Notes: generated by a model from the letters alone, not told the origin. Counted from the first letter of the stretch, positions 20,432 through 37,016 are shown. The stretch: DNA of 64,000 bases from Candidatus Peribacteraceae bacterium (GCA_028711345.1 JAQTSK010000002.1:228-64227); one strand, 5' to 3'. Program-made: numbers and translations.

Positions 20432-23400
20432 TTAGAGAATGAGAGCTTGAGCGTGGTTGCGCCAATCCTCTCGGGTATTGAGGACAGGTTGATTAGATTG
20501 TACCGCTAAACGGAAAGTGTCAATATTATCGCGGACGGCATGGAAGAGTGTGTAGCTGTTGGGATCCCGTGCCCACTGATTAATCGCATCGAAGTACAAA
20601 TTTTGCGTGGGGATGACTGCCAATTCTGCGTGTCCTAGGAAGGTATGAGCGACCTGCGGATTGCCTGCACCGTACACTCCGGTATACGGGTTATAAGTCC
20701 AGGGGGCATCCAGGAGGTGTGAGTGATCTCCTAGGATTTCTTCGTGCCGACGGATGTACTCCTTTCCTGCTTCTGCAAATGGTCCGTTGTGTTCGGCATG
20801 CATGCATGCCGTGTGCACGGCTTGAATGATGCGGGCGTCAGCCGGTTCCAGCACACCCAACACATCAGTCCGCCCGGTACCCCAGCTGAAGGGGAGCGAG
20901 GCGCGTGCGCCCTGCGCGTCGTAACTGATGATTGCCCCGTTTTCTACGCCCGATCCGACCGTCGTCTGGAAATCCTCCGGCACGTAGCGGATCGCTCTAC
21001 TCGCGGCCAACAGGTAACTGGTGGCAAGCACACCGCAATTCCTGAGGCTTAAGCGTCCTGGGCAGCAAACCTGCAATTCCGGTTGCTCGCGGACGCCATG
21101 CCTCTGATTCAAGACTCTGCCTGCATTGAGTACCCACACGCGCAATTCAAACTCTTCTGTAGTAGGAACCGGGGGCAGATTCGCCGATTTCAGCGCATGC
21201 AGCAGGCGGAATCCGGTGCTGTTCCACCCTAATGCCGCGTTGATGACGTTGATTTGCGCGGCACCCATTTCCGAATGAGTGTGAGCCTTCCCTCCGATGG
21301 GAGACATGCCTTTGACGGTTTCTCGACTTTCACGAATGCTCTGGGCAAAGGGAGGAATGTGATCGCTGATCAGTGTGCGCATTTCTTTCCTGGTGAGTGT
21401 GCCTGCGCGCAGTGCTTGCTGTAGATCTCGCCGCACGGGCAGCGTCAGCGCATGGAGCGAATGTTCTGATGGAATAGGGAGGTCGGATGTATCGATCGTA
21501 TCAGCTTTGTCCGCCCCATCCCCATTGAACGGCATTCCAGTGGGTGAGAGATGCGAGGCGAGTGCCACCCTGCCCATTTGACGTCTGAGAAATGTGGAGA
21601 GGAGGAAGACGTAGCAGCGGAAAGAGTCTTCCGTACTCCGCAAGCTTGCCGCTTCCATTTCCGTGGGTGCGGTCTTCACCGAAATACCGAACGATTCCGT
21701 GGGGAACGACTGGACATCGGCGGCGATGGCGGCCAATTCATTGACTTGAAACTCCTCTGCCAGAATGTGATGCACCACCTGACGCGCACCATCATCCGTG
21801 AGCCCGGCCATCTGCCGCAGCAATGCGGAGACTACCTTCATCTGCTTCTGCACCTCCGTACGCACCTCCGGTGCCACTGTCTTCGGTCGGTGCCTGTCTT
21901 CTTCCTCATCTTCGTCCTCTCCCCAGTTGCGGACGAGGAGCTGTCCGATCTGCGCGACCAAGTGAGCAATGGACTCATGCAGAATCGGGTCACCGGTACT
22001 GATATGGCGGTCTGTGCACCAGTCCACGATGGTATGGGCATCGTCCGGACCGACGCATGCGGCCAATTTTCCGGTCAGTTCTTGTGCTTTGGCTGACTCG
22101 ACTTGTCGCTCGACTCGCTCTTCCGTCCATGGCAGCGTACTGATGACGTTGGGCGTGAGTTTCGCATCGGAATTCATCCCCGCACGCACAATCGCAGCGA
22201 TGTCACCGGTGGCAAAATGCTGCTGTGCACCGGATTGCAGGATTGTTGCCACGCGGTCCAATGTCCTGCGCAGCTCATGCAGGCGGTACGATTGCAGACT
22301 CGTTTGGCACTGACCCAAGACCTCCGTCACTTCCTGATGAAACTGCTGTCGGACTTCCTCCACAAAACGGGCACGCGCTTCCGCACTGTCAGCTTCTAGC
22401 TGCTCCTTACGTCTCTCGTTCTGCCGCTTCAGGCGGTAGGAGTTCGGGGGGCTGTACCCCAATGCTTTCTCATTCATTGCAAGATGGTCGATTTCAAATT
22501 GGCATGCAGCGATCTGGTCCTGCCTCTCGCGCTCCGCAACCTCAGGGAGGCGGGTGGCGTCACTGCGCGGGTCATCTTGGAACTTCGCTTGGACGGCCTC
22601 CGTCACCTCAAGATGGATCGGCGCAAAGACCCATGCCAGGATTGTCTTCACATCCTCCTCAGCAAGGAGGTCAAGTCCGTGGAGGTCTAAGAGCCGCGAT
22701 AGGGTGCGGTAGGGTTGCTCTTCCGCAAGGCGCAGTTCTTCACGGTCCGAGAATCGTGGCCCCGTCCCATTGGGGATCACCTGTGTTTCATCGATGTCGT
22801 CTCTGAAGCGCGTCTCCAGTTCGCGCAGCGTATGTTCATCGTCATAGACGGGTTCTCCCTGGTGCGGATACTGGCGCTCCAACCGGTCCAGTACGTCGAT
22901 GAGCCACGCGGGCGGTTGCAGGGGATGTTCTACCCGCGTCGCGCAATATCGGGCGTAGATCGCAGCGAGCAGGGGACCCCGGTAGGATCCCAAGCGGGAG
23001 AATGCAGCATGGAATTGTTGCAGATCCGTGAGAGATGAGGGCGAGCGCTCTGGGGGGGGGCCGGAGGGAGGCGGGTAGTCGCGGAGGGACAATGCGTGCT
23101 CCGAGGCAATCCCCGGCTTGCCGTGAACTGGCAGGCGTAGACGCTCCGGGAGCGGTCGATCGATACTGGTGAGGAGTTTCACTACTTCCTGTGGCGTTGC
23201 GTGGAGGGGGTCCGCGCGCTCCTGGACTCGATGTCTGCGGTCTCCATATGGATCATCATCCTCCTGTGTAACTCTTCCTTTGGATTGATCGAATGCATCT
23301 GCAAGTGCCGTGAGGCAGGGCTTCTGGAAGCTGGTCTGGGGCGTGGTGGTCTCCAAGATGCCCATCATCGGAGATACGGGCTTCTGTTTTTCTAGGAAAA

Positions 23401-25588
23401 TGAGGAATTCCTCCAGAGCAGCCGAACGCCGCTTCGTCGTTGTCTGCTCTATGAGTGCCAGAACATGGCGGAGGACATTGGTCGCTCGCAAGGGATTACC
23501 GATGCCATACCACTCCGTCACGCGCACGGTGCAATCGATCGCGCGTTCCTGTCCGATCCCCTCCATTGCTCCCAGCTGATATCCAGCGCGCTTGTAGGTT
23601 TCCAGTGCGTACTCGTACAGCGGTCCAGCGCGTCTGGCCATGGCCAGCGAGAGTGCGCACCCTTCTTGATTCGGCTCCACAGCGATACCGTGGCGGTAGC
23701 GAAACAAAGCGCGTCCCATTTCTTGCTCCTGCGGCCAGGTGGTGGGGATATGTTTGTGGTTCACGTATTCCTGTCTGGTGAATTCATCCTCTTCCCTCTC
23801 TTCGTCGTAATCATAAGTATTGTAAAAACCAGCACGCCTGGCCCGATACTCCATTTTTCTGATCTCCCGCAATTCACCACGAAGGGAACTGATTGCATGT
23901 TGCAAGGCATGTGCTTTCCAATCCTCAACACGACTCTGTATTTCAACTAATTCTCTTTCATCCACTAATCCCAATCCATCCACATCGACAATGCGTTGCG
24001 TGAGCTCCTTCGTGCATTGATGTCTTTCGGGATTGCAGTAGCGATCCATGACCATGGTACAACGTTGCGGGTTGACTCCTTGTTCCGATAAGCACGGAAG
24101 GTCGCGGAGAAAGGCGATTACAAAGTCCTTGCGAATATCCTCGATCGAGATCCAGGCGCCATGTTCACGCAGGAACGTGATGGCCTGCGGGTTGATTTCT
24201 CCTAGGGCTTCCTGTGCAGTTGTGAGGAGCTCCCACGTGTGCGCATCGGTTCCCTCGGGAGGGGTATTGGTTTCAGCCGGATCGAACGTCTGCTCGGCCA
24301 GACCAGCCTTCTCATTAAACCACCAAGGCAATTTTCCATTGCCGTAGATCGCCTGCACCAGATCAATGCCGTAGAGCACAGCGGCAGAGAGATCACCCGC
24401 AGCGGCGACTTTGCGAATGAGTGTAGTGAGCGATGCCATCCGCAATCCCTGTCTTAGGAACGCAGGCAGAGAGTGTAGAAAATCAATGATCCGTTCCTGT
24501 TCCAGATCTGTGCGAGTCAGCGTGTGATCAATGACGAATCCCACAGCTTCCGGCGTTAAATCGCGCATTTGTTCCTGTAACTGGCGGATGACTGCGCATT
24601 GTTCCGGTGGAAGGTGCCTCATGCGAAAGGGTGACTTTTCTTCTTGCGCGTTGCATACCAAGGGTGCGGTATGCTCCAAGCATTGCGCGATAAAGTCCGG
24701 CGGGAAGAACATGTGTCGGCGCATGGCAAAAGCCCCGCCCGCCATGGTCTCCGTACACTCCTTGGCCCACTGAAGCGGTGGTAAGCGGTGTGGCTGCGTT
24801 TTGCGGTAATGAACCGGCGCACCGAACTGAGCGTAGAACGAAGGCCAACCCATCCACGTTGCCTGCGCGCGCGCCTGTCCACCCTGCTTGAGGCGCAATT
24901 GTTCTAAACTGTAGAGCACAGCGATTTCCTGCTGTAGGATGGGGCCATTTCTGTACCGGCCGTACTGCAATTCAATTGTGTTATCCCCGCGCCATGTTAT
25001 GTACCCAGGTGACAAGGGAGCGCGTCGATCGATTACGCGTCGTTGCGTTGCGATCAGTTCTTCGGAGTTATCGTGGGCAAGGTAACGGACACTGTCGTAC
25101 TGGTTGACGTACGCGCGTCCGAAGTTGAATCCGGTATTGGGATTGCCGTGCTGCGATTTGCGGATGTTGTGGTCCGGCGGCAGTCTGAGGAGGAGCTTAC
25201 TGGTGCTCCCTGGTACATCCTCCGCCAAGCGGTACGTGAACCGGTCCGGGAGATCCGGTTGGGGGTAGGCGCTGCGTTCTCCGCTCCTGCCGTTCATCAT
25301 TTCCAAAAGCTCCCACTCTTCCTGTTCCTCGGGTGTCCGTTGCTGTCGCTCTTCCCCGCATTCTTCGCGCTCTCTATCATGCTCAGCCCAGTAGAGGTCC
25401 GTATTTCTGCGCCGTTGCTGCTCCTCGGGATCGTCATCTTCATCGCGGTAGCGGCTGCTCCTGAGCCCTGGCAGACCAGTGAGATGCATAGATATTAAAA
25501 TTGAAAGAGTGGAGCATTTTAACAAAAGTGACAAATAATGCAAATCATTATCTGATGTATCTTCAGCGGGGAGGGTATGGAACCTCAT
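20432..25588 (-). CDS. orphan giant protein (1718 aa)
   Basis: An uninterrupted 5.2-kb ORF cannot arise by chance. No P-loop, HExxH or other motif I recognise. Acidic, helical-looking N-terminal two thirds and a denser C-terminal 350 aa. The start is uncertain (25588 or 25489). Confidence 0.7.
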   Translation of the reverse strand: MRFHTLPAEDTSDNDLHYLSLLLKCSTLSILISMHLTGLPGLRSSRYRDEDDDPEEQQRRRNTDLYWAEHDREREECGEERQQRTPEEQEEWELLEMMNGRSGERSAYPQPDLPDRFTYRLAEDVPGSTSKLLLRLPPDHNIRKSQHGNPNTGFNFGRAYVNQYDSVRYLAHDNSEELIATQRRVIDRRAPLSPGYITWRGDNTIELQYGRYRNGPILQQEIAVLYSLEQLRLKQGGQARAQATWMGWPSFYAQFGAPVHYRKTQPHRLPPLQWAKECTETMAGGAFAMRRHMFFPPDFIAQCLEHTAPLVCNAQEEKSPFRMRHLPPEQCAVIRQLQEQMRDLTPEAVGFVIDHTLTRTDLEQERIIDFLHSLPAFLRQGLRMASLTTLIRKVAAAGDLSAAVLYGIDLVQAIYGNGKLPWWFNEKAGLAEQTFDPAETNTPPEGTDAHTWELLTTAQEALGEINPQAITFLREHGAWISIEDIRKDFVIAFLRDLPCLSEQGVNPQRCTMVMDRYCNPERHQCTKELTQRIVDVDGLGLVDERELVEIQSRVEDWKAHALQHAISSLRGELREIRKMEYRARRAGFYNTYDYDEEREEDEFTRQEYVNHKHIPTTWPQEQEMGRALFRYRHGIAVEPNQEGCALSLAMARRAGPLYEYALETYKRAGYQLGAMEGIGQERAIDCTVRVTEWYGIGNPLRATNVLRHVLALIEQTTTKRRSAALEEFLIFLEKQKPVSPMMGILETTTPQTSFQKPCLTALADAFDQSKGRVTQEDDDPYGDRRHRVQERADPLHATPQEVVKLLTSIDRPLPERLRLPVHGKPGIASEHALSLRDYPPPSGPPPERSPSSLTDLQQFHAAFSRLGSYRGPLLAAIYARYCATRVEHPLQPPAWLIDVLDRLERQYPHQGEPVYDDEHTLRELETRFRDDIDETQVIPNGTGPRFSDREELRLAEEQPYRTLSRLLDLHGLDLLAEEDVKTILAWVFAPIHLEVTEAVQAKFQDDPRSDATRLPEVAERERQDQIAACQFEIDHLAMNEKALGYSPPNSYRLKRQNERRKEQLEADSAEARARFVEEVRQQFHQEVTEVLGQCQTSLQSYRLHELRRTLDRVATILQSGAQQHFATGDIAAIVRAGMNSDAKLTPNVISTLPWTEERVERQVESAKAQELTGKLAACVGPDDAHTIVDWCTDRHISTGDPILHESIAHLVAQIGQLLVRNWGEDEDEEEDRHRPKTVAPEVRTEVQKQMKVVSALLRQMAGLTDDGARQVVHHILAEEFQVNELAAIAADVQSFPTESFGISVKTAPTEMEAASLRSTEDSFRCYVFLLSTFLRRQMGRVALASHLSPTGMPFNGDGADKADTIDTSDLPIPSEHSLHALTLPVRRDLQQALRAGTLTRKEMRTLISDHIPPFAQSIRESRETVKGMSPIGGKAHTHSEMGAAQINVINAALGWNSTGFRLLHALKSANLPPVPTTEEFELRVWVLNAGRVLNQRHGVREQPELQVCCPGRLSLRNCGVLATSYLLAASRAIRYVPEDFQTTVGSGVENGAIISYDAQGARASLPFSWGTGRTDVLGVLEPADARIIQAVHTACMHAEHNGPFAEAGKEYIRRHEEILGDHSHLLDAPWTYNPYTGVYGAGNPQVAHTFLGHAELAVIPTQNLYFDAINQWARDPNSYTLFHAVRDNIDTFRLAVQSNQPVLNTREDWRNHAQALIL

Positions 25589-26021: not shown

Positions 26022-27860
26022 ATGGCTTACATGAGAACAACTCGAACAGACGCAAGGAAGCCGCGGCGCGTTGCTCAGTACATTCGCGTTTCGACTTTGG
26101 AGCAGGCGAAAGAGGGGAACAGCCTTCAGGGACAGCAGGACAGCTTGGCGAAGTACATCGAATCCAATGCAGACAGCGAGAACAATTGGGTCACCAGCAA
26201 GACGCTCGTTTACGTTGATGATGGATACTCCGGTGCGGACGATGAGCGACCCGAGTTCAAGCGCATGATGCGTGACGCCAAAGAACGGAAGTTCGACGTG
26301 CTACTTGTTTGGAAGATTGATCGGCTGTTCCGCAACACGCTCCTGCTTCTGGAGACGATCAAGGAGCTGAAGAAATATGGCGTGGAGTTCGCCTCGAAGA
26401 ACGAGCTGATCGACACGTCCAAGTCCACAGGCAGATTCCTCCTGACGATTCTTGGCGCCATTGCCGAGATGGAGCGCGAGACCATCCGCGAGCGCACAAT
26501 CATGGGCAAGATTACGAGCGCAAAGAACGGAAATTACGTCGGAGGAAAGTACCCGCCCTTCGGTTATGACGTGGATAAGCACGGCAAGATGGTCATCAAC
26601 AAAGACGAGGCAAAAATCGTACTTGAAATATTCACGATGCTCGTAGAAGAGAAGAAGACCCAAACACAGATTGCCAAGATACTCACTGCCCGCAGAGTTC
26701 CCACGAAGTCAGACCGCGTGGGAGTGGAGCGTCGGACGAATCAGGTGGGTTTTTGGGGTCAGGCTGCGATCGCTGCGATTTTACTGAAGGACGAATATGC
26801 AGGAACGTACTACTACGGCAAGCGTGAGACCTACCTGAACGAGAACGAAGACAAGCGCCAGCGGGAACGCCCCCGTGAGGAATGGATTCCTCTGCCGTGC
26901 CCCGAGATCATCCCGAAACCCATGTTCGACAAGGCGCGACTGATTGCGCGTGAGAACGAGCAATATTCCATTCGTGCCTCGGATCATGTCTACCTGCTCC
27001 GCAGCAAAGTCTACTGCGGCGAATGCGGCGGCAGATACCAAGGCTATCCCAAGAAGAAAAAGGGCATCGTGTACTTCAATTACCATTGCAGCCGGAAGAA
27101 TCCGGGCAAGAGTGAGAAGCCGTGCTTGAACAAAGAGATGTCCGAAAAGAAGCTGGATGTCATCGTATGGAAGACAATCGATGAGCTGCTCAGTGATCCC
27201 AAAGCAACGCTCAAGGCGTTCGATACCAAGATGCGAGAAGAGTCGAAGGCTGCCGAGTACCAGTCTCAGATTAAAGATTATCAAGATGAGCTGGATGAGA
27301 AGGACAAGGAGCTGGGACGCTTGGTGGCTGCCATGAAGCGAGGGAAGATGTCCGATGCGATCTACGACAATGAGGTGGACACGACCAATACCGAGATGGC
27401 GACCATCCGTACCGAAATTGCCCGACTCGGGAATCTCCTTTCCACAGAGCTGGAGCGAGAAGAGCTGAAGAAGTCACTGGCGAGACTTGCGACCGAATAT
27501 CGCAAGAAATACGGCAAAATTGACCGGAAGACACAGGAAGTGATCATCCGAAAGCTTGTAAACAAAGTGGTTATCCACGCTTCGGGCAAAATCACTGTGG
27601 ATTACGCAATCCCGACAATTCAAAATCGGGTATTTAAATGTGGTGGAGATGCCGGGAGTCGAACCCGGGTCCAACGTGTACGCCGACGGTCAGTACGATC
27701 ATGGTCTTCTCAGTTCTCTCATCCCCTGAGAGAAGAACAGAGAAAGGGTGAGAGTGATGACGCTGTATTCAGGAGTCCGTCACGTCAGTCGGAATCCAAC
27801 CCCGCTAGTGACGTTTCACCCGTCCAGCGAGGATCAACGGGGAAACGTGGTCCGAAGTGA
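26022..27860 (+). CDS. large serine recombinase (integrase); last 68 codons are antisense ssrA
   Basis: Resolvase catalytic domain VAQYIRVSTLEQ..DDGYSG..RPEF, recombinase domain, zinc ribbon CGECGG..YHCSRK, coiled-coil. The ORF reads through the att core into the tmRNA gene. Confidence 0.85.
   Translation: MAYMRTTRTDARKPRRVAQYIRVSTLEQAKEGNSLQGQQDSLAKYIESNADSENNWVTSKTLVYVDDGYSGADDERPEFKRMMRDAKERKFDVLLVWKIDRLFRNTLLLLETIKELKKYGVEFASKNELIDTSKSTGRFLLTILGAIAEMERETIRERTIMGKITSAKNGNYVGGKYPPFGYDVDKHGKMVINKDEAKIVLEIFTMLVEEKKTQTQIAKILTARRVPTKSDRVGVERRTNQVGFWGQAAIAAILLKDEYAGTYYYGKRETYLNENEDKRQRERPREEWIPLPCPEIIPKPMFDKARLIARENEQYSIRASDHVYLLRSKVYCGECGGRYQGYPKKKKGIVYFNYHCSRKNPGKSEKPCLNKEMSEKKLDVIVWKTIDELLSDPKATLKAFDTKMREESKAAEYQSQIKDYQDELDEKDKELGRLVAAMKRGKMSDAIYDNEVDTTNTEMATIRTEIARLGNLLSTELEREELKKSLARLATEYRKKYGKIDRKTQEVIIRKLVNKVVIHASGKITVDYAIPTIQNRVFKCGGDAGSRTRVQRVRRRSVRSWSSQFSHPLREEQRKGESDDAVFRSPSRQSESNPASDVSPVQRGSTGKRGPK
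27639..27654. repeat. attR core within the ssrA 3' end
   Basis: TGTGGTGGAGATGCCG. Its reverse complement is the CGGCATCTCCACCA acceptor/CCA end of the tmRNA plus 2 nt. Confidence 0.7.
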
Positions 27861-28214: not shown

Positions 28215-28565
28215 CTACAAGTCATTAAGTATGTACATACAACTTCCGAAGACCAGAATCGGAATGATCGCAGTCGAGAGAATGCCGATGGAAATGTACC
28301 GCCTTCCCGTTTTGTTGAAGAAACGAACGAGGAGATACACAATGAGAATGGCGATTCCCGTTCCGATGATGACTGCCATGATTACTTCGGATTGCTGACT
28401 CAGCAGGCCGAGACCGAGGGGAAAATTGAGAAGGAAGCCTCCGACAATTGTCAGGAGAGCGCCAAGGATGAAGTCGACGGTTTTTCGTACGCCGGTATTA
28501 GTCGCATAGTAGTCGGGACGGGACGTTCCCGGCTTAGGATTGTTCACGACGGGCGTTTGATCCAT
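28215..28565 (-). CDS. hypothetical small membrane protein
   Basis: Only the last 116 codons of track ORF 28215-28988 look coding (MDQTPVVNNPKPG.., three TM segments). Overlaps the lgt 3' end by 22 nt. Confidence 0.45.
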   Translation of the reverse strand: MDQTPVVNNPKPGTSRPDYYATNTGVRKTVDFILGALLTIVGGFLLNFPLGLGLLSQQSEVIMAVIIGTGIAILIVYLLVRFFNKTGRRYISIGILSTAIIPILVFGSCMYILNDL

Positions 28566-29329
28566 ATGCGTATGGGGAAGGGGAACAGAAGCTTGAGCGC
28601 ATAGTATACCAATACGACAATTGCGGCATATTGGTAGCCGGTGAAACCGAAGAGGAGCCGCGGTTCGGTGCGGATGAATTCGAGGAAGAAGCGGAAGAGG
28701 AAGTAGGCGATCATGAATCCCGTCAGGAGCAATCCGTCGGGTTGTTTCTTCCTCAGGCAGAATATGAGGATCAGGAATGCGATGACGCCGAACAGCGACT
28801 CGTAGAGTTGCGTCGGATGTCGCAAGATCCCGTCGCCGAAGTCGACGCCCCACGGCAACAGAGTCGGTTGTCCATGGCAGCATCCGCGTAGGAAACAGCC
28901 CCATCGTCCGACGGCGATACCGGCGGCCAGTGCCGGCGCGATGGCATTGCCGATCCGCTGCTTGATGTGCAGCCTGCGCTTGATCCACCAGACCGCCAGT
29001 GTGCCGCCGATCAGTCCTCCGACGATCGTCCTGCCGGAGAGCAGTGCGTCGATGTCGAATCCGCCCGTCGCAATCTGCGCATATTGCGTGAGCCAGATCG
29101 GGATCTTCGCTCCCAGTACACCGCCAACGAGAGCAGCAATGAGAATGTAGAAAGAATGTTCATGTGTCTTCTTCTCTTTCTTCAGAAAGAATACGAAGAC
29201 AAGTATTCCGACGAAGAGCGCAAGTGCCATGAAGACCGGATACGATTCCACGCGGAATGAACCGACGGTGAACAGCACGGGGCGGATACCCCATGACGAC
29301 GGCAGCGGCAATGGCGGTAAGCTCGTCAT
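28544..29329 (-). CDS. lgt: prolipoprotein diacylglyceryl transferase
   Basis: ..GRTIVGGLIGG..GRWGCFLRGCCHGQPT..WGV.F..RHPTQLYES... Start at ATG 29329 overlaps the upstream stop as ATGA. Confidence 0.85.
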   Translation of the reverse strand: MTSLPPLPLPSSWGIRPVLFTVGSFRVESYPVFMALALFVGILVFVFFLKKEKKTHEHSFYILIAALVGGVLGAKIPIWLTQYAQIATGGFDIDALLSGRTIVGGLIGGTLAVWWIKRRLHIKQRIGNAIAPALAAGIAVGRWGCFLRGCCHGQPTLLPWGVDFGDGILRHPTQLYESLFGVIAFLILIFCLRKKQPDGLLLTGFMIAYFLFRFFLEFIRTEPRLLFGFTGYQYAAIVVLVYYALKLLFPFPIRIWIKRPS

Positions 29330-29784
29330 TGCTTCTCCCCGAAGAGGCGCCTCGAGAGCGGACAGCAGCCGCCTGTCGCACAGAGGTAGAGTTTGGACGC
29401 CGGGCAGTAGCCGCACGCGGAAATCGTCTTCACGATGGCGAGGAGCAGCAGGAGACGCCAGCCGATGGGCGTTGCGGGGAAAGCAGAGATGAGGAGGAGA
29501 CACGCTGCGCTCCAGAGCGCGCCGAGGGTGTGTGCGAAGCGCATCGCGGAGCGATCAAGCGTCTCGGAAACGGAAGGCAGAAATCGCCCGAGCGTGTTCG
29601 TGTACAGCACGATCATCGGGGCGCGGTCGATGCCGAGAAGAGCGGAGAGGGCCAAGATGCCGAATGTGAGCCAGAGCGCCCACACGGCATCAAATAGGAA
29701 CGCGATCCAGAGAAGGGCCGTGATGCCGACGCGGCAGAACAGGAAGGCTGCACGTTGAACGGCGACGGGATGGCGCGTTTTCAT
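29326..29784 (-). CDS. DUF4395-like membrane protein
   Basis: MKTRHPVAVQRAAFLF.., four TM segments, ..RFAHTLGA.. and C-terminal ..ACGYCPASKLY... Start ATG 29784 overlaps the ICMT stop as ATGA. Confidence 0.6.
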   Translation of the reverse strand: MKTRHPVAVQRAAFLFCRVGITALLWIAFLFDAVWALWLTFGILALSALLGIDRAPMIVLYTNTLGRFLPSVSETLDRSAMRFAHTLGALWSAACLLLISAFPATPIGWRLLLLLAIVKTISACGYCPASKLYLCATGGCCPLSRRLFGEKQ

Positions 29785-30416
29785 GGGTGAGAGCGTAGGA
29801 GTTTCGGGAAGAACATGCCAGTCGCCTTTCTGTATGCGCCGTATTCGGGGAACGTCTCCTCCAGCATTCCTTCTTCCTGCCGCGCTCTCCATGTCATGAA
29901 GGGCACGAAGACGCAGGCGGTGAGGAGGAAGAGCAGCCAATTCACGTACATCACGCTCCCCGCGAAGAACATCCAGATGAGTGAGGCATACAGCGGATGA
30001 CGGACGAACGCATAGGGGCCGGAATGCACGATGCTCTGATCGTCGTACATCCTGATCTGATTCGCCCAATTGTGACCGAGCGACGTTCTCCCCCGGATAT
30101 TCACGAACGTCCCGAGGATCAACACGGCGATGGAAAGACTGACGAGCGTGATGTGCAGGGGTACGGATTGCGGGTGCAATGCACCGATCTGAAACCTCGC
30201 AACGAGATAGTAGATGATGAAGAACAGCGTCATGGTTCCGGTCTCCACGACGCTGCGGCGTTCTTTCCGCACGGCATGCGTATTGGCTTCCGCAAAATTG
30301 CAGATGATCGCAATGAAGATGGCCGCGACACAAAGGACGACAATGATCGACGCGACGGCGTCAAATGCGCCGAGAGGGGTTTCAAACAGCCGCCGGAAGC
30401 GATCAAGTTGCATCAT
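29781..30416 (-). CDS. isoprenylcysteine carboxyl methyltransferase (ICMT/PEMT) family membrane methyltransferase
   Basis: ..IVHSGPYAFVRHPLYAS...F......W........RARQEEGMLEETFPEYGAYR... Start ATG 30416 overlaps the radical SAM TGA as ATGA. Confidence 0.75.
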   Translation of the reverse strand: MMQLDRFRRLFETPLGAFDAVASIIVVLCVAAIFIAIICNFAEANTHAVRKERRSVVETGTMTLFFIIYYLVARFQIGALHPQSVPLHITLVSLSIAVLILGTFVNIRGRTSLGHNWANQIRMYDDQSIVHSGPYAFVRHPLYASLIWMFFAGSVMYVNWLLFLLTACVFVPFMTWRARQEEGMLEETFPEYGAYRKATGMFFPKLLRSHP

Positions 30417-31789
30417 GCCGCGATGGTCCTGTGAATCATATTGTACGCGGAGAAGGGAATTTTGCGGCCGTCCGGCGTGATGATGTGTACGCACTCCTTC
30501 TGCATGGAGCGCAGGTCGAAGTTGTACGCATCGACGAAGGACGTGATGCTGATCCGGAACAGGCTTTCATTGAGGTACTGCGCGCGCTGTCCGACCGTGC
30601 GCATGAGAGCGGCGTCGCCGAGCAGATCGATGAATTTGAAAGGACCCTTCAGGCAACCGCATCCCTGCAGCGCTTTCATGTCCATCGCATCGTCGAGAGA
30701 GAAGGCGAAGGTGTTTTTGATGGCCGGTACAAATTTTCGGATATCGATCTCCCGCGGGAGCGCAGTCCACTTCCCTTTCTTATTCTTCCGCAAATAGGTC
30801 AGAGAAACGCGGTCGACATCACAGGGGAGCGGAACGAAATCCCGCATCGTCAGGAGACCGTCCGTCTGCTCCTCCATGCGACGGATGATGCCGGTGAGCG
30901 TTACGCGATCCTTCGTCGAAGATCCGGTCGGCATCCTCCCGAAGTAGGCCATGGGCTGGAAATTCACGCCGCGAATGCACGGAGTGTCGAGGCCGAGCCG
31001 CACGATGGATCCGATGTCGCCGTCATTCACCCCGCGCGCAATCGTCGCAACCAGCGTCGTCGGCACGCGGTGCCGCACCAGGTGTTCGATGGCTTTCTTC
31101 TTCTCGCAGCTTAAGTCTCTGCCTCTGAGCGTACGGAGCGCGTCCGGACTGAATCCGTCGAATTGGAGATAGACTTCGAATCCGCCGTTGAATGCCGCGA
31201 GCTGCTTCACAAATTCCTCATCCTTCGCAAGACGCAGTCCATTGGTATTGAGCATGACGTACTTGAAACCCTTCTTCTTTCCCAGATCGATGATGTCGAG
31301 AATGTGCGGATGCAGAGTCGGTTCCCCGCCGCTGATCTGGAGGATCTCGGGCGGCTCGAATTCGGAATCGATGTACGCATCCATCATCCGTTCAATGGTT
31401 TCCATGGGAAGGAACTCGCCGTCCCCTGACGCCGCATAGCACATGGGGCAGCGGAGATCGCAGGCATTCGTCACTTCGATGAGTCCGATGCAGGTGTGCT
31501 GGGCGTGTTGCGGACAGAGACCGCAATCGAACGGGCATCCCTTCTCGATTTTCGTCTGTCTCCTGCAATCGGTTCCCAGCTTGTCATAGTCCCGCCGCCT
31601 CATGAAATACTCCGCATCCTCCTCCAGCAATTCCGTTTGCAGGCCGTGGGACGGACACACTTTCTCGAGAACAACGCCGCCTCCCCGCCGGATCATTCGC
31701 GCAGGTACGCACTCCATGCACTGCGGACACAGGCTGGTGGTTGCTTCGAGGAAGAAATCGAGGGGGATGCTACTCGTGCTGGAATGCAT
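30413..31789 (-). CDS. radical SAM protein with N-terminal zinc-ribbon and auxiliary Cys cluster (COG1964-like)
   Basis: CPQC..CPSHG, GCPFDCGLCPQHAQHTC, then the radical SAM CxxxCxxC motif NACDLRCPMCY and the GGEPT motif. Confidence 0.85.
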   Translation of the reverse strand: MHSSTSSIPLDFFLEATTSLCPQCMECVPARMIRRGGGVVLEKVCPSHGLQTELLEEDAEYFMRRRDYDKLGTDCRRQTKIEKGCPFDCGLCPQHAQHTCIGLIEVTNACDLRCPMCYAASGDGEFLPMETIERMMDAYIDSEFEPPEILQISGGEPTLHPHILDIIDLGKKKGFKYVMLNTNGLRLAKDEEFVKQLAAFNGGFEVYLQFDGFSPDALRTLRGRDLSCEKKKAIEHLVRHRVPTTLVATIARGVNDGDIGSIVRLGLDTPCIRGVNFQPMAYFGRMPTGSSTKDRVTLTGIIRRMEEQTDGLLTMRDFVPLPCDVDRVSLTYLRKNKKGKWTALPREIDIRKFVPAIKNTFAFSLDDAMDMKALQGCGCLKGPFKFIDLLGDAALMRTVGQRAQYLNESLFRISITSFVDAYNFDLRSMQKECVHIITPDGRKIPFSAYNMIHRTIAA

Positions 31790-31882: not shown

Positions 31883-32263
31883 TCATAGCACATGCTTCAT
31901 CACCCAGTTTCCCGCACCGATCACGCAGCTCACGACGATCCAACCCATGATGCCGCCGGTGATGGCGAGTGAGACGATGGCGGGATCCATGAGCAGGACG
32001 AACTGATAGACGAGCCAAAGGAAGAGGCCGTTCACCACGATCGTTGTCGCCAGAGTGAAGAGGAGATGGAAGGGGAAGGTGACGACGTTCAGGAGCGGGC
32101 GCAGGAAGAGGTTGCCGAGTGTCAGGAGGCTTCCGATGATCACGTAGGCGGGGGCACCGCCGAAGACTGCAACGTACTGCGGCAAATAGCTATTTACGCC
32201 GAGGATCAGCAGGATGTTGCCGACGGCGCGGAGCGCGATGCGGGATGGAAGGGAGAGGGACAC
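31883..32263 (-). CDS. DUF360 / phage-holin-4_2 family membrane protein
   Basis: 126 aa, four TM segments, typical DUF360 layout. GTG start. Confidence 0.6.
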   Translation of the reverse strand: MSLSLPSRIALRAVGNILLILGVNSYLPQYVAVFGGAPAYVIIGSLLTLGNLFLRPLLNVVTFPFHLLFTLATTIVVNGLFLWLVYQFVLLMDPAIVSLAITGGIMGWIVVSCVIGAGNWVMKHVL

Positions 32264-32702
32264 AAATTGAAAATTGTAAATTGAAAAAGGAAAATTAATG
32301 TTTTGAATTATTTTCTTTCGAAGATTTTATGATGGCCACCAAGAGGCGGATGATCTCATTAATATCACTCAAAAGAGAAGTGCCTTCTACTTGGCTAAAA
32401 TAACAGCTATCACGCAGGAGGAGAATCCAGAACCGTGTTTCATATGCCTCTTTCAGTGCAATAGAAAGCTTTGAAATGAAATCTGCCCTACTTTGCCCTT
32501 GCAGCGATTCCTCGATGTTCGCGCCAACACTTGTTCCTGAGCGCAGCAGTTGCTTGCTCATTACATATTCCCTTTTCGATTCCGTAAGAAATTGATATGC
32601 CTTCACAATTCGCAGTGCAAAGGCAAAACTTTTCTCCCGGACGATATTCTTTTTCTCCATAACAATTTTCAATTTTCCTTTTTCAATTATCAATTGTAAA
32701 GC
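32263..32702. repeat. inverted-repeat-flanked cassette carrying four-helix-bundle gene 1
   Basis: Perfect 18-bp inverted repeat AATTGAAAAAGGAAAATT (32279-32296) / AATTTTCCTTTTTCAATT (32671-32688) within longer low-complexity arms. Confidence 0.75.
32295..32660 (-). CDS. four-helix-bundle protein ('23S rRNA intervening sequence protein' family)
   Basis: ..SFAFALRIVKAYQFL......YVMSKQLLRSGTSVGANIEE......DFI.KL.IALKEA.ET.FWL.LL... Start set at MEKKNIV. Confidence 0.8.
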   Translation of the reverse strand: MEKKNIVREKSFAFALRIVKAYQFLTESKREYVMSKQLLRSGTSVGANIEESLQGQSRADFISKLSIALKEAYETRFWILLLRDSCYFSQVEGTSLLSDINEIIRLLVAIIKSSKENNSKH

Positions 32703-35700
32703 TCACTTCTTCTTGAACCGGATTTTGAGCTTCCTACGGACGACGTCGATCTCATGAATTTCCGCCTCGTCGCACGGACGGATCTCCGAACGGGTTTCGC
32801 TTTCGATGAGATCCTTGTGAGCGGAGACAATCTCATCGCCGCCGTCGACCTGCAACGTGATGGTGTCGGTGAACTCGAGTCCGCTTTCTTTGCGAAGCGT
32901 CTGGATTGCATGGATCAGTTCTCGGGCAGCACCCTCATTCTCCAATGCTTCATTTACAGCAATATCCAGCGTGACAACGATGCCTCGGTTGGCGGCGACG
33001 GTCTGCCCTTCCTTGCTCTGATGAATGATCTTCGCCTCCTCGGGTGACAGTGTCTCGCCGAGGATGATGATGACACCGTCCTTCTCCTCGAATTTGCCTT
33101 CTTTTCCTGCCTTGATCACTTCCTGCACTTTCTTGCCGAGTCGCGGACCGACTTTGCGCGCATCGACCTGTACAATTGAAGATGCGAGTGCGGAGGCATC
33201 CGTCGTTCTGATGACCTGTTTCACGTTCAGTTCCTCTTTGATCAGCTCCGTGACGACACCGACGGCATCGGACGGCGGCAGAGCGAAAGTGACGGATTGC
33301 AGAGGTTGGCGGACGCGGATCTTGGCATCCGATCGGAGTGAGAGGCCGAGAGTTACAACCTGCCGGGTGCTTTCCATCAGTTGCAGCAGCTTCTGATCTT
33401 CTTCATTGATTTGAACGGACACCGGCCAGTCGGTGAAGTGGATGCTGCCGTGATCTTCTTCGACGAGATTGAGGTAGATCGCCTCGGTGACGAACGGGCA
33501 GAACGGCGCGAGCAATTGGCAGTTGGCGATGATGACGCGGTAGAGCGTATCCAGCGCATCGGTTCCGCCTTCTTCCTTGGCGCTGAAACGCCGCCTGCTC
33601 AACCGGACATACCAGTTCGTCAGATCATCGATGGAATCGGCGAGGTGCGCGCAGGTGGCGGAGAGGTCGTAGCCGTCCAGTTCCGTCGTCATATTGTTCA
33701 CCAGTTCCTGCGTCTTGAGGATGATCCAGCGATCCAGCTGATTCGTCGATGTCCCATTCTTGAGCGACGAATCCAACGACGGTTTCCAGTTCGCCGCATT
33801 GGCGTACGTCACGAAGAGCCGGTACGTGTTCCACAGCGGCAGGAGCACTGATCGCACCGTCTCCTCCACCAGCTTCTCAGAGAACCGCAGATCTTCTCCT
33901 CTGACTGCGGGTGATGCCATCAATGCAAACCGGACGGCATCGGCGCCGTGTTTCTTCACCACTTCCGTCGGCTCGGGGTAGTTCTTGAGGCGCTTACTCA
34001 TCTTCTTGCCGTCCTCCGCCAGCACGATCCCGTTGACGACGCAGTGCTTGAACGCGGGGCATTTGAACAGAGCACTGGAGAGCACCATGAGCGTGTAGAA
34101 CCACCCGCGCGTCTGATCCAGCCCCTCCGCGATGAAGTCCGCGGGGAAGCCGACCGGACTGTCCGATTTCACCTCGAACGGGAAATGATCCTGCGCGTAG
34201 GGCATGGAACCGGATTCGAACCAGCAATCAAGCACTTCCTCGATGCGGCGCATCTGCGGACGGAGTGTGATGTTCACGGGAGCGCCATTCCTTGGTTGTA
34301 CCTGCGGCATATCTTCATATGCGATGCCTTCCGCGACCATCCTGAACGCTTGTGAGAAGCCTCCATGTGATATGAGGAGCACGCGTTTCCCCGCATATTC
34401 TTTCAAGAGAAAATCATGTGCACGCTGCGCCCGTTCGATGAATCGGTCGAATGATTCACCGTTCGGCCCGGCGGAACGCGAAAAGCAAATACCTTTGAAG
34501 GCCTTGTCATTCAGCAATGATTCAATGTCCTTCACCGGTTTCATGTCCCACTCCCCGACATTCCGTTCGGTGAAGAGTTCCCCTTCTTTCACGTCCGCAA
34601 CCCCCAGTTCCTTGGCGATGATTGTTGCCGTTTCTTTCGCCCTCTTCAGGGGAGAAGAGATGATCACATCAAACTGCTGACCTTTCAGCTGCTCGGCGGC
34701 TTGCTTCGCCTGTGTCCTGCCCGTCTTGTTCAGTTTCGTGTCCGCTCCGCTGCCCTGTACGATTTTCAGTTTGTTCAAGTCGGTCTCCCCGTGCCTGACC
34801 AGCGTCACTTCCACCTCACTGCCTTTATTGCCCTTACTGCCTTCACTGCCTTTATTCCAAACAATTCCATCCACCGATTCCTTATGCAGATCCATCTGCG
34901 CATTCCTCTCGTGGTCCCAGTAGAAGGTGCGCAGCGACGCGAGAGCGGGGTACGGCTGATGCACGATCTTGTTCGGCTCCTGTCCCGTGAAGAAGTGGAC
35001 AATGTTCATGATGGGGTCCGCGTGTGTCACGATCGAAATGGATTCTCCCCGATGCTTCGGCAGAATTTCCTTGAGGAACGATTCCACGCGTCTGCCGACG
35101 TCCGCCCACGTCTCCATGCCGTGGAAGTGGTAGATGCTTTCCACCTGCCCCTGCTCCAGTTTGTGCGCTCTGCGTTCGCGGACGAAGGTGAGATCGTCGA
35201 AATCCACGTGCTTGCCCTCGTACTCCCCGAAATCCACTTCCTTCAGCCGCTCATCGATGATAATTTTTGCGCCCGTTGCCTTGGCCACGGCTTCGGCCGT
35301 CTCCCGCGTGCGCCTAAGCGGCGAGCAGTAGATGACCTTCACGGGCAGACTGTCGGCCTGCTCTTTCAGCCGGTCAGCGAGCGCTTTCGCTTGCTGTTGC
35401 CCGTTGTCCGTGAGAGGAGTGGACGGTTCCTTGCACTGGTAGATTTTGTCGACGTTGCCCTGACTTTCCGCATGACGCGAGATGAAGATTTTCGTGAAGC
35501 GCGTCGGCGCTTTGGCCATCAGTTCGCTGCGCGAGCCGATCACTTCCACCTCGCCGGTCGTCGTATTGCGCCAGATGGGCAGCGGCGTGCCCCAGAAGCG
35601 GTTTCTGGAAATCGCCCAGTCTCTCGCTCCCTCCAGCCATTTGCCGAACCGTCCGTCGCGGAGGTGGGAGGGTACCCACTGCGTCTGTGCATTGGACTTG

Positions 35701-37016
35701 AGCATTGTTTCCTTGATCTTCTCCACCGCGACGAACCACGAGCTGGTCGCGTAGTTGAGGAGAGGTGTGTCGCACCGCCAGCAGTGAGGGTAACTATGGG
35801 TGACGGTGTAGCTGTCGAAGTGGCGGCCCATCTCCTTGAGTTTGCGGATGATCGCCTTATCGGTGCTCATCGGATCTTTGCCTTCGGGCTTGATCAGCAT
35901 GCCCTTAAAATCAGTGACTTCACTGAAGAAATTGTTATCCGTCGTCACGTGGTGCAGGACGTCGACCTTCAGCTTCTTGGCCAGCTCGAAGCCGTCTTCG
36001 CCGTAGGAGGTCGTCATGTGGACGATGCCCGTTCCTTCGTCCTCCGACACTTCCGGATGCAGCAGAATGTTGAATGCTTTCTCGCCGTACGTGACGGGCT
36101 TTCCTTCTGCGGCCGATGACGGCAGCACCTTGTCGACGAAATAGTTGAAGAGGGGAACGTACTTCTTGCCGACCAGTTCCGATGCTTTGATGTCGCCGGT
36201 GATCTCGTATGTCCGTTTCTTGAAGATCTTCTCGACCAGCTTTTTGGCGACAATGTACGTCGTATCGCCCTCTTTGACTTTGACGTAGTGAATCTCATCT
36301 TTCATCGCCAGCCAGATGTTCCCCGGCAGCGACCACGGCGTCGTCGTCCAAGCGAGGATCACCGTTTTCGGATCGTCTACGAGTGGAAAGGTCATGATTA
36401 CGGATTGGTCCGTCCGGTCCCGGTAGCCCTGCGTTACTTCGAAATTGGAGAGCGGTGTCACGCAGCGGGGGCAGATGTGCATCGACTTGTATCCCTCGTA
36501 GATCAGCTTCTGTTCATGGAGCTGCTTGAATACCCACCAGATACTTTCCATGTAATCCGCATCCATCGTGCGGTAATCCCAGTCCATGTCCACGAAGCGG
36601 CCGAGGCGTTCGACGGTCGATCTCCATTCCCCCGTGTAGCGCTGGACGGCGGTGCGGCAAAGGTTGTTGAAGTTGGCGATACCCAAGGTTTCGATGTCCT
36701 TCTTGGAGGTAAGCCCCTTCTCCTTTTCGATCTCGTTCTCCACCGGCAGTCCGTGGCAGTCCCAGCCGAAGCGGCGCTTCACGAACTTCCCGCGCATGGT
36801 TTGGTACCGCGGGATGACGTCTTTGATGGTGCCGGCGAGGATGTGGCCGTAGTGCGGTAAGCCGGTTGCAAACGGCGGTCCGTCGTAGAAGCTGAAGATC
36901 TCCCCCTTCTCGCGGCGGTGCATGGAGCGCTTGAAGGTGTCTTCCTCGCGCCAGTACTTCAGGATCCCGAGCTCGAGGTCGGGGAGGGATTGCTTGGGGT
37001 CAACGGAGTCGAACAT
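32703..37016 (-). CDS. ileS: isoleucine--tRNA ligase (type 2) with two inserted histidine-phosphatase domains
   Basis: HYGH and KMSKR class-I motifs; editing and anticodon-binding regions present. Extra RHAES.. (34902-35504) and RHGET.. (34257-34814) phosphoglycerate-mutase-like domains. Confidence 0.9.
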   Translation of the reverse strand: MFDSVDPKQSLPDLELGILKYWREEDTFKRSMHRREKGEIFSFYDGPPFATGLPHYGHILAGTIKDVIPRYQTMRGKFVKRRFGWDCHGLPVENEIEKEKGLTSKKDIETLGIANFNNLCRTAVQRYTGEWRSTVERLGRFVDMDWDYRTMDADYMESIWWVFKQLHEQKLIYEGYKSMHICPRCVTPLSNFEVTQGYRDRTDQSVIMTFPLVDDPKTVILAWTTTPWSLPGNIWLAMKDEIHYVKVKEGDTTYIVAKKLVEKIFKKRTYEITGDIKASELVGKKYVPLFNYFVDKVLPSSAAEGKPVTYGEKAFNILLHPEVSEDEGTGIVHMTTSYGEDGFELAKKLKVDVLHHVTTDNNFFSEVTDFKGMLIKPEGKDPMSTDKAIIRKLKEMGRHFDSYTVTHSYPHCWRCDTPLLNYATSSWFVAVEKIKETMLKSNAQTQWVPSHLRDGRFGKWLEGARDWAISRNRFWGTPLPIWRNTTTGEVEVIGSRSELMAKAPTRFTKIFISRHAESQGNVDKIYQCKEPSTPLTDNGQQQAKALADRLKEQADSLPVKVIYCSPLRRTRETAEAVAKATGAKIIIDERLKEVDFGEYEGKHVDFDDLTFVRERRAHKLEQGQVESIYHFHGMETWADVGRRVESFLKEILPKHRGESISIVTHADPIMNIVHFFTGQEPNKIVHQPYPALASLRTFYWDHERNAQMDLHKESVDGIVWNKGSEGSKGNKGSEVEVTLVRHGETDLNKLKIVQGSGADTKLNKTGRTQAKQAAEQLKGQQFDVIISSPLKRAKETATIIAKELGVADVKEGELFTERNVGEWDMKPVKDIESLLNDKAFKGICFSRSAGPNGESFDRFIERAQRAHDFLLKEYAGKRVLLISHGGFSQAFRMVAEGIAYEDMPQVQPRNGAPVNITLRPQMRRIEEVLDCWFESGSMPYAQDHFPFEVKSDSPVGFPADFIAEGLDQTRGWFYTLMVLSSALFKCPAFKHCVVNGIVLAEDGKKMSKRLKNYPEPTEVVKKHGADAVRFALMASPAVRGEDLRFSEKLVEETVRSVLLPLWNTYRLFVTYANAANWKPSLDSSLKNGTSTNQLDRWIILKTQELVNNMTTELDGYDLSATCAHLADSIDDLTNWYVRLSRRRFSAKEEGGTDALDTLYRVIIANCQLLAPFCPFVTEAIYLNLVEEDHGSIHFTDWPVSVQINEEDQKLLQLMESTRQVVTLGLSLRSDAKIRVRQPLQSVTFALPPSDAVGVVTELIKEELNVKQVIRTTDASALASSIVQVDARKVGPRLGKKVQEVIKAGKEGKFEEKDGVIIILGETLSPEEAKIIHQSKEGQTVAANRGIVVTLDIAVNEALENEGAARELIHAIQTLRKESGLEFTDTITLQVDGGDEIVSAHKDLIESETRSEIRPCDEAEIHEIDVVRRKLKIRFKKK

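Follow-up and report, generated by a model that had tools for sequence, protein, structure and literature searches.

A Conserved Gene Cassette Joins a Tes-Related Radical SAM Enzyme to a Divergent Lgt Paralog and Small Cysteine-Bearing Membrane Proteins

The Cassette in the Peribacteraceae Genome

The stretch of DNA analyzed here (the window) comprises 64,000 nucleotides (nt) of Candidatus Peribacteraceae bacterium (GCA_028711345.1, JAQTSK010000002.1:228-64227), an organism from groundwater whose own assembly holds 1.77 Mb in 93 contigs. Positions 28215–31789 of the window harbor a membrane cassette of five genes, all on the minus strand, in which an enzyme of the radical S-adenosylmethionine (SAM) type is encoded together with an Lgt-family paralog and a small membrane protein with a conserved cysteine. 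In their order of transcription these are the radical SAM gene (30413–31789; 458 amino acids; Pfam domains Zn_ribbon_HMPTM and Radical_SAM), a gene for an ICMT-like membrane methyltransferase (29781–30416; 211 amino acids; Pfam ICMT/PEMT), a gene for a DUF4395 membrane protein (29326–29784; 152 amino acids; Pfam PF14340), the Lgt-family paralog (28544–29329; 261 amino acids; Pfam LGT), and a small membrane open reading frame (ORF; 28215–28565; 116 amino acids), whose product has three helices and belongs to no Pfam or NCBIfam family.

Read from the reverse complement, the first three gene junctions are ATGA overlaps of start and stop codons (30416–30413, 29784–29781, and 29329–29326), and the small ORF overlaps lgt by 22 nt, from its ATG at 28565 to where the lgt stop codon ends (28544); direct reading of the sequence confirmed all four overlaps as given in the original prediction, which had been made from the DNA alone. 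A 4-nt ATGA overlap is the commonest type of overlap among operon genes, and such overlaps are frequent in the Candidate Phyla Radiation (CPR), a group with compact genomes that includes the host organism. By themselves they indicate an operon and no more, and the fixed stoichiometry that had been derived from them was an over-reading. A scan for promoters and terminators was uninformative, as it returned fewer sites than shuffled sequences predict.

Phylogenetic Placement of the Radical SAM Enzyme

The sole solved relative of the radical SAM enzyme in the PDB is GDGT-MAS, the tetraether lipid synthase also termed Tes (7TOL; E 6e-81, with similarity that extends to both termini), and identity to an archaeal Tes amounts to 32% (E 5e-74). 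The curated families are not reached: TrsS (NF045646), which scores best among them, gives 369 bits at a cut-off of 490, and Tes (NF045702) gives 318.9 bits at a cut-off of 450. Ten other members of the same clade, taken from both gene architectures described below, score 235–349 bits on the Tes model and likewise stay under the cut-offs.

Phylogenetic analysis was based on a 121-row maximum-likelihood tree and a careful 50-row tree calculated under LG+C20+F+G4, and the two agree. Tes is monophyletic (support 99/93), TrsS forms a clade of its own (100/99), and the window enzyme falls into a third clade (100/100), hereafter the Lgt-linked clade, which is the sister of TrsS (92/88 in the 50-row tree) and lies outside both TrsS and Tes. 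It divides into subclade A (100/98), which includes the window protein, and subclade B (100/99). The enzyme thus groups within the Tes/TrsS superfamily and not with an unrelated family such as the peptide maturases. Judged by sequence, it is homologous to Tes but is not a Tes, belonging instead to a separate clade nearer to TrsS. A second radical SAM copy on the chromosome of Ktedonosporobacter rubrisoli (L100, 2016213–2017145) branches at the base of the clade; no gene for Lgt, ICMT, or a small protein lies within 1.5 kb of it. An apparent selenocysteine in a DPANN homolog (L008) was dropped, the flagged TGA being the stop codon with which the gene ends.

The N-terminal Cys ribbon, the auxiliary-cluster motif GCPFDCGLCPQHAQHTC (residues 84–100), and the CDLRCPMC motif (residues 110–117) had all been noticed in the original prediction and are present, and the architecture that it took to be common with GDGT-MAS/Tes is upheld by the Pfam domains, the match to 7TOL, and a per-clade table of cysteines. 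Ligands were assigned from alignment, not structure, with the metal ligands of Tes taken from its published description (PMC9433317). The invariant residues are C21, C24, C45, and H48 for a rubredoxin-like CX2C...CX2H site, C85, C89, and C92 with a histidine (H95/H98) for the N-terminal auxiliary cluster, and C110, C114, and C117 for the CX3CX2C radical SAM cluster; these three sites are kept in all clades. They correspond to what is found in Tes of Methanocaldococcus jannaschii (MJ0619; 7TOL, 7TOM; NF045702), which has the rubredoxin-like site, an N-terminal [4Fe-4S] cluster held by three cysteines and one histidine, the CX3CX2C core, and a C-terminal domain.

Differences from Tes lie in length, the window enzyme being ~40–70 residues shorter, and above all in the C-terminal cysteines. 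Three columns that are conserved as Cys in all 28 Tes and 5 TrsS sequences are R327, E432, and S447 in the window enzyme, a result that is alignment-dependent. Instead of this triad, the Lgt-linked clade has the invariant C100, C323, and C433 and an extra cysteine pair, which takes the form CxC in subclade A (377/379 in the window enzyme) and CC in subclade B. TrsS is of similar length to the Lgt-linked enzymes and has C100 and mostly C323 in common with them, yet it retains the triad of the Tes type. Since the C-terminal cluster of Tes bears a sulfur-carbon lipid intermediate, the re-ligated site may mean an altered chemistry.

The original prediction had extended the common architecture to Mss, the bacterial membrane-spanning-lipid synthase of Thermotoga and Thermoanaerobacter. 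This finds no support: Mss is a radical SAM enzyme that couples lipid tails and so is functionally analogous to Tes, but organisms carrying Mss are reported to have no Tes homolog (PMC13159169), and it is on this literature statement that Mss is set apart here.

Linkage with the Lgt Paralog and Distribution of the Cassette

The nearest homolog of the radical SAM enzyme is found in Candidatus Peribacter riflensis (Peribacteria, CPR; 79% identity), which encodes the identical five genes in identical order, with overlaps of 4, 4, 8, and 20 nt. The five-gene order was further found in ~20 loci from Clostridia, Bacteroidales, Actinomycetota, Elusimicrobiota, Kiritimatiellota, Acidobacteriota, and DPANN archaea. 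We compared 80 related loci from species-representative genomes and added true Tes loci (archaeal and acidobacterial, all above the cut-off) and true TrsS loci; many of the compared loci are contigs of metagenome-assembled genomes (MAGs), the archaeal ones being situated on contigs of 33–224 kb (92–224 kb for L011, L012, and L034).

An Lgt-family gene on the same strand and within 3.4 kb accompanies the radical SAM gene in 70 of the 79 loci in which the latter is intact. In eight of the remaining nine loci the contig breaks off on the side in question, and only one (L069) truly lacks the gene, which leaves 70 of 71 informative loci with the linkage. Genes for Lgt, ICMT, or DUF4395 were found within 1.5 kb at none of 44 Tes or Tes-like loci, including those of the acidobacterial Tes, and at none of 5 TrsS loci. 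Ties to an Lgt paralog and to small Cys proteins thus set the Lgt-linked clade apart from Tes; TrsS differs in its soluble, small-molecule setting, its neighbors being a methyltransferase of class I, a redox protein of the C_GCAxxG_C_C type, and an AMP-binding PaaK-like enzyme, with no Lgt and no membrane genes (L107, L108, L115, L109, and L110).

The two subclades correspond to two gene architectures. Subclade A has the order radical SAM, ICMT, DUF4395, Lgt, small protein and is found in CPR, Clostridia, Bacteroidales, Actinomycetota, Elusimicrobiota, Kiritimatiellota, Holophaga, and DPANN archaea, chiefly anaerobes. Subclade B has the order Lgt, radical SAM, small protein(s) and is found in Bacillaceae, Paenibacillus, Chitinophagaceae, Saprospiraceae, Alpha- and Betaproteobacteria, and Gemmatimonadota as well as in MAGs of Halobacteriales and Methanobacteriota; in the Ktedonobacteria the small protein is encoded between the other two (Lgt, small protein, radical SAM). 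The universal core is therefore the radical SAM enzyme, the Lgt paralog, and one or more small Cys proteins, with ICMT and DUF4395 accessory to subclade A. Of the four-gene lipid or lipoprotein tailoring operon first proposed, the conserved cassette stands and the gene order is kept across phyla; its composition has to be redrawn, as two of the four genes are confined to subclade A and the small Cys protein belongs to the core. All-against-all clustering of 1669 flanking ORFs returned generic or lineage-specific families only and no further conserved neighbor such as a protease, an exporter, or Lsp.

Individual loci vary in layout. A gammaproteobacterial locus of subclade B (L068) has the order ICMT, Lgt, radical SAM; in L014 the Lgt gene is upstream of the radical SAM gene, and in L011 an insertion of 2.2 kb separates the radical SAM and ICMT genes.

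Among relatives of the window organism (same genus, family, or class), the radical SAM gene was found in none of 40 sampled genomes, and because of this and of a serine recombinase gene that adjoins the cassette, we regard the latter as accessory and patchily distributed. It appears to be a self-contained, horizontally mobile unit, in one reading acquired laterally by DPANN and halophilic archaea. The five genes recur together far beyond what chance would allow.

A Remodeled Active Site in the Lgt Paralog

The Lgt paralog of the window is a member of the Pfam family LGT (PF01790; 141 bits at a gathering score of 24.9), and falls short of the diacylglyceryl transferase model TIGR00544 with 96.1 bits at a cut-off of 118.9; the paralogs of subclade B (type B) reach only 40–76 bits on this model. 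When aligned to the Escherichia coli enzyme (5AZB), it retains Y26, R143, Y235, R239, E243, R246, G154, and the RHPxQLYE motif, with E243 replaced by D and R246 by K in type B across the clade alignment. Several other positions are altered: The HGGL motif is VGGL in the window and (V/I)GGL across the clade, so that H103 is lost, and the signature GRLGNFINGELWG has become GRWGCFLRGCCHG in the window paralog, with N146, E151, and L152 all replaced by Cys. The change from GRLGN to GR(I/W)GC is common to subclades A and B, and E151-L152-W153 is C-C-H/Y in subclade A. Substitutions of H103, R143, and E151 inactivate Lgt of E. coli (PMC4728403). With H103, N146, and E151 replaced and the lipid-binding arginines kept, the protein is best understood as an enzyme of the Lgt fold with a rebuilt catalytic center rather than a bona fide Lgt.

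This is also reflected in the gene complement. The window genome encodes three PF01790 genes: a canonical one elsewhere in the assembly (230 bits; signature GRLGNFINGE), the cassette copy, and a degenerate third, situated on contig C36 of the same genome (L087:1429-2412), which scores 94 bits, has DWFGM in place of GRLGN, and lacks an equivalent of R143. A single Lsp is encoded elsewhere in the genome. Seven other bacterial carriers also encode a canonical Lgt (175–282 bits) besides the cassette copy (82–136 bits), and in the Lgt tree all noncassette copies are on one side of a branch with a Shimodaira–Hasegawa-like approximate likelihood ratio test (SH-aLRT) support of 99, apart from the cassette paralogs, which form a monophyletic group. 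The original prediction had taken the gene for the diacylglyceryl transferase of the cell; the canonical copies elsewhere, the residue changes, and the tree together reject a housekeeping Lgt as the explanation of the cassette gene.

Three archaeal genomes have the cassette copy as their only Lgt-family gene. At the loci L034, L041, L011, and L012 (Halobacteriales, Methanobacteriota, and DPANN), the PF01790 gene is found solely within the cassette. Archaea have been reported to lack Lgt homologs (PMC12462473).

The Small Cysteine-Bearing Membrane Proteins

In the original prediction the small ORF at the end of the cassette stood in brackets as an extra; it has turned out to be a conserved core component and is probably the acceptor substrate. 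The C-terminal element of the window protein reads ...NKTGRRY-ISIGILSTAIIPILVFGS-C-MYILNDL, with a lipobox-like motif I-L-V-F-G-S-C at 28239–28259 (minus strand), in which Cys109 is encoded by 28241–28239. Hidden Markov models (HMMs) were seeded from the whole ORF and from its C-terminal region. The ORFs detected are ~65–180 amino acids long, occur in 1–5 tandem copies per locus, and are positioned directly after Lgt in type A loci (those of subclade A), directly after the radical SAM gene in type B, and between both in the Ktedonobacteria. Where at least 400 bp of room was available, an HMM match was obtained at 11 of the 19 loci of type A and at 34 of the 49 of type B; small proteins at L009, L013, L020, L022, L028, L034, L038, and L041 were added by eye.

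The small proteins match no family in Pfam or NCBIfam and share a layout of a K/R-rich loop, a hydrophobic helix, the motif G-F-[GSA]-[ATGS]-C, and a short tail. Among 72 of them the Cys is present in 100%; counted from it, L/I/V stand at positions -6 and -5, G at -4 (50%), F at -3 (44%), G/S/A/T at -2 (84%), and A/T/G/S at -1 (67%), and the tail past the Cys has 3–14 residues (median 8). Of 6193 background ORFs, no more than 107 (1.7%) contain the motif in its loose form. The arrangement is the one known from lipoprotein signal peptides and their lipobox, but it is placed at the C-terminal end of a mini-protein with two or three helices. By the positive-inside rule, the NKTGRR loop of the window protein would be cytoplasmic and its Cys would lie on the outer side of the membrane. 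In the Bacteroidota the tails frequently terminate in His, as N-x-H (L039, L047, L058, L067, L073, L075, and L079–L084), and as many as five small genes stand in tandem (L039).

Accessory Proteins of Subclade A

The ICMT-like protein is recognized by Pfam ICMT (PF04140; 4.5e-13, 49.9 bits at a threshold of 24) and by PEMT (7.6e-10), and scores 72.4 bits on the NCBIfam model for isoprenylcysteine methyltransferase (NF040696), below its cut-off of 160. Its nearest relative in the PDB is Ma-ICMT (4A2N; E 5e-14), and the cofactor motif RHPxY...EE is conserved in the form of RHPLYaS and RAxQEE in an alignment of 23 cassette homologs. A weak match to LmtA, a lipid A phosphate methyltransferase, was also found; given this and the match to PEMT, a carboxylate or phosphate on a lipid is as possible a target as a carboxylate on a protein.

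The DUF4395 protein scores 46.5 bits on PF14340 (gathering score 24.5). F16, C17, W26, S47, P56, T64, H85, C127, C135, C140, and C141 are invariant, and the protein ends in a basic tail rich in Cys. AlphaFold2 models it confidently as a four-helix bundle, with a predicted local distance difference test (pLDDT) score of 91.

Genomic Surroundings

Directly downstream of the cassette, a gene on the plus strand (26022–27860) encodes a large serine recombinase with Resolvase, Recombinase, and Zn_ribbon_recom domains, and this is adjoined by a minus-strand ORF of 1718 amino acids without a Pfam domain (20432–25588); the two may constitute an integrated element at the border of the cassette. Upstream of the cassette, a minus-strand interval (31883–32693) encodes a holin-like protein (31883–32263; 126 amino acids; Phage_holin_4_2, slightly under the Pfam cut-off) and a four-helix protein of the 23S_rRNA_IVP type. 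Both genes were considered as members of the cassette and dropped, as they show no linkage at other loci. Beyond them lies the gene for isoleucyl-tRNA synthetase (IleRS; 32703–37016, minus strand), which encodes 1437 amino acids and has two PF00300 histidine-phosphatase domains inserted in its catalytic domain, an architecture found also in Ca. Peribacter riflensis. The cassette of the latter is likewise near IleRS and the holin-like gene, but its orientation relative to both is inverted.

Discussion

The homologies, the clade structure, the linkage, the conserved motifs, and the residue substitutions described above most likely reflect a protein-lipid modification pathway not described so far, rather than a membrane-lipid synthase. 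The novelty claimed in the original prediction holds, in that no account of the gene set was found in the searchable literature: Searches for Lgt together with radical SAM enzymes and tetraethers, for DUF4395, for COG1964, and for Lgt paralogs returned no description of this combination, and a recent review of lipid-modifying radical SAM enzymes mentions no link to Lgt or to lipoproteins.

It is quite possible that the cassette covalently modifies the small proteins with lipid at their invariant Cys. We take these proteins for substrates or precursors because they occur in up to five tandem copies, as is often the case for such proteins, and for acceptors because the residues at positions -1 and -2 of the invariant Cys are small, as they are in a lipobox. 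The mechanism outlined here, including the assignment of substrate, the order of steps, and all of the chemistry, is inferred from sequence comparison. The small protein would serve as a dedicated acceptor, its K/R loop remaining inside and its last helix placing the Cys at the outer face, the site of Lgt-type active centers. Onto the thiol of this Cys the Lgt paralog, with its phosphate-binding arginines kept and its catalytic motif remodeled, would transfer a group derived from a glycerolipid. The radical SAM enzyme, re-ligated at its C-terminal cluster site relative to Tes, would carry out a Tes-type radical hydrogen abstraction on a hydrocarbon chain and so couple or cross-link the lipid before or after transfer. 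In subclade A, the ICMT-like enzyme would methylate a carboxylate or phosphate made in the pathway, and DUF4395 might act as a redox, metal, or docking partner through its Cys and His residues.

The proposed acceptor resembles that of Lgt of E. coli (5AZB/5AZC; TIGR00544) in that two small residues and the Cys follow a hydrophobic helix preceded by K/R, and the two enzymes share the PF01790 fold family. The differences are that in the cassette paralogs H103 is V/I, N146 is Cys, and E151-L152 is Cys-Cys (in type A), and that the acceptor motif is found near the C-terminus of a polytopic mini-protein rather than after an N-terminal signal peptide. A parallel to CaaX processing may also be drawn, tentatively, as an ICMT-family gene is located beside a putative Cys S-lipidating enzyme and the Cys is a few residues from the C-terminus; yet the cassette has neither a prenyltransferase nor a CaaX protease, the tail has 3–14 residues rather than three, and the methyltransferase is missing from the whole of subclade B.

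Taken to its full extent, the proposal would be that the Lgt paralog lipidates the near-C-terminal Cys of mini-proteins and that the radical SAM enzyme welds the tails by radical C-C or C-S coupling, giving macrocyclic or membrane-spanning anchors or released lipopeptides, with a methyl cap added by the ICMT-like enzyme in anaerobes as a prokaryotic parallel to CaaX; the pathway would be widespread in bacteria and lateral in DPANN and halophilic archaea. In this complete form we regard the proposal as doubtful.

Several findings weigh against lipid modification of the small proteins. Topology presents a difficulty that bears on the order and place of the steps, as Lgt-type sites face outward, whereas the sites of radical SAM and ICMT-type enzymes use cytoplasmic SAM. 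H103 and E151, both essential to Lgt of E. coli (PMC4728403), are missing from the paralog, as is N146, and it may transfer no diacylglycerol at all. The HMMs detected no small protein at ~10 proteobacterial, Longimicrobium, and Planctomycetota loci, and in the proteobacterial small proteins the motif (e.g., LFSGGC) is part of the first helix, with a second helix after it. A Foldseek search of the DUF4395 model against the PDB returned no relative (best E 0.8, TM-score 0.43) and thus offers no functional clue. Finally, the small proteins could be subunits instead of substrates.

A related explanation keeps the S-lipidated precursor and adds a cut before the Cys by Lsp or another protease, so that the cassette would resemble a factory for ribosomally synthesized and post-translationally modified peptides and release a surface lipopeptide of 4–15 residues, modified by the radical SAM enzyme and, in subclade A, by the methyltransferase. 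The precursor-like tandem copies, the short tail after the invariant Cys, and the presence of Lsp in the genome would all suit such a product; the last helix, laid out as n-region, h-region, and lipobox, mimics a lipoprotein signal peptide, and the recurrent N-x-H terminus of the Bacteroidota implies selection on the tail. We nonetheless consider it unlikely, since the cassette has no protease or exporter, the type A tails are hydrophobic and poorly conserved, and the proteobacterial Cys precedes a second transmembrane helix rather than a short tail.

The small proteins might alternatively be structural or catalytic subunits, with the Cys as a covalent lipid carrier or metal ligand, in a complex that makes or remodels a special phospholipid and in which the Lgt paralog acts as a glycerophospholipid headgroup or alkyl transferase. 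In favor of this are the catalytic motif of the paralog, which has turned rich in Cys (GR[IW]GCF, plus C-C-H in type A), the five invariant Cys of DUF4395, which suggest that thiols or metals react within the membrane, and the matches of the ICMT-like protein to PEMT and, weakly, to LmtA. A copy number of 1–5 and fast divergence outside the motif would, however, be unusual for obligatory subunits, and the lipobox-like surroundings of the Cys are those of a protein that Lgt lipidates, which makes this explanation quite unlikely.

In an explanation akin to the original prediction, the radical SAM enzyme could act as a bacterial Tes and join ordinary membrane lipids tail to tail into bulk membrane-spanning lipids (of the branched glycerol dialkyl glycerol tetraether, brGDGT, or diabolic-acid type), with its neighbors engaged in general lipid or lipoprotein tailoring. 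Its similarity to archaeal Tes and to 7TOL is considerable, GDGT-MAS purified from E. coli bears phospholipids of that host (PMC9433317), and bacterial Tes homologs have been proposed as brGDGT synthases (PMC8941075). Against this stand the distinct clade, in which the C-terminal Cys triad of Tes and TrsS is missing at the aligned positions, the obligate linkage to an Lgt paralog and a small Cys protein, which is unseen for true Tes including the acidobacterial ones, and the patchy, accessory distribution with none of the 40 relatives as carriers. To our knowledge, no membrane-spanning lipids have been reported from the cultured aerobic carriers (Bacillaceae, Paenibacillus, and Chitinophagaceae), and we consider bulk lipid synthesis very unlikely. 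That the genes form no functional unit at all and are adjacent by chance or local synteny, for which only the frequency of ATGA overlaps in compact CPR genomes would speak, is effectively refuted by the recurrence of the set in more than ten phyla, in two domains, and in unrelated genomic contexts.

The pathway that we favor, lipid modification of the small proteins, is open to bench testing, as cultured carriers exist (Heyndrickxia, Paenibacillus, Niabella, Hymenobacter, and Ktedonosporobacter), among them Heyndrickxia shackletonii LMG 18435, Paenibacillus harenae DSM 16969, and Niabella pedocola JCM 31011. The cassette represents a conserved, widespread enzyme system with a concrete candidate substrate. 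Its paralog is a natural experiment on the active site of Lgt, with H103 gone and N146 replaced by Cys, and carries PF01790 genes into archaeal MAGs, contrary to their reported lack in archaea (PMC12462473).

For the Tes family, the finding touches on how bacterial homologs are read. Surveys have called such homologs at E <1e-50 with identity >20% (PMC8941075) or at E <1e-30 with identity ≥30% (PMC11868695) and have read them as a potential for brGDGTs (PMC8941075, PMC11868695). The Lgt-linked clade passes these thresholds, with the identity of 32% and E of 5e-74 given above, yet it very probably does not represent tetraether synthases. Telling the clade apart, by its linkage to Lgt, the loss of the C-terminal Cys triad of Tes, and the presence of C100, C323, and C433, would sharpen the assignment of lipid sources.

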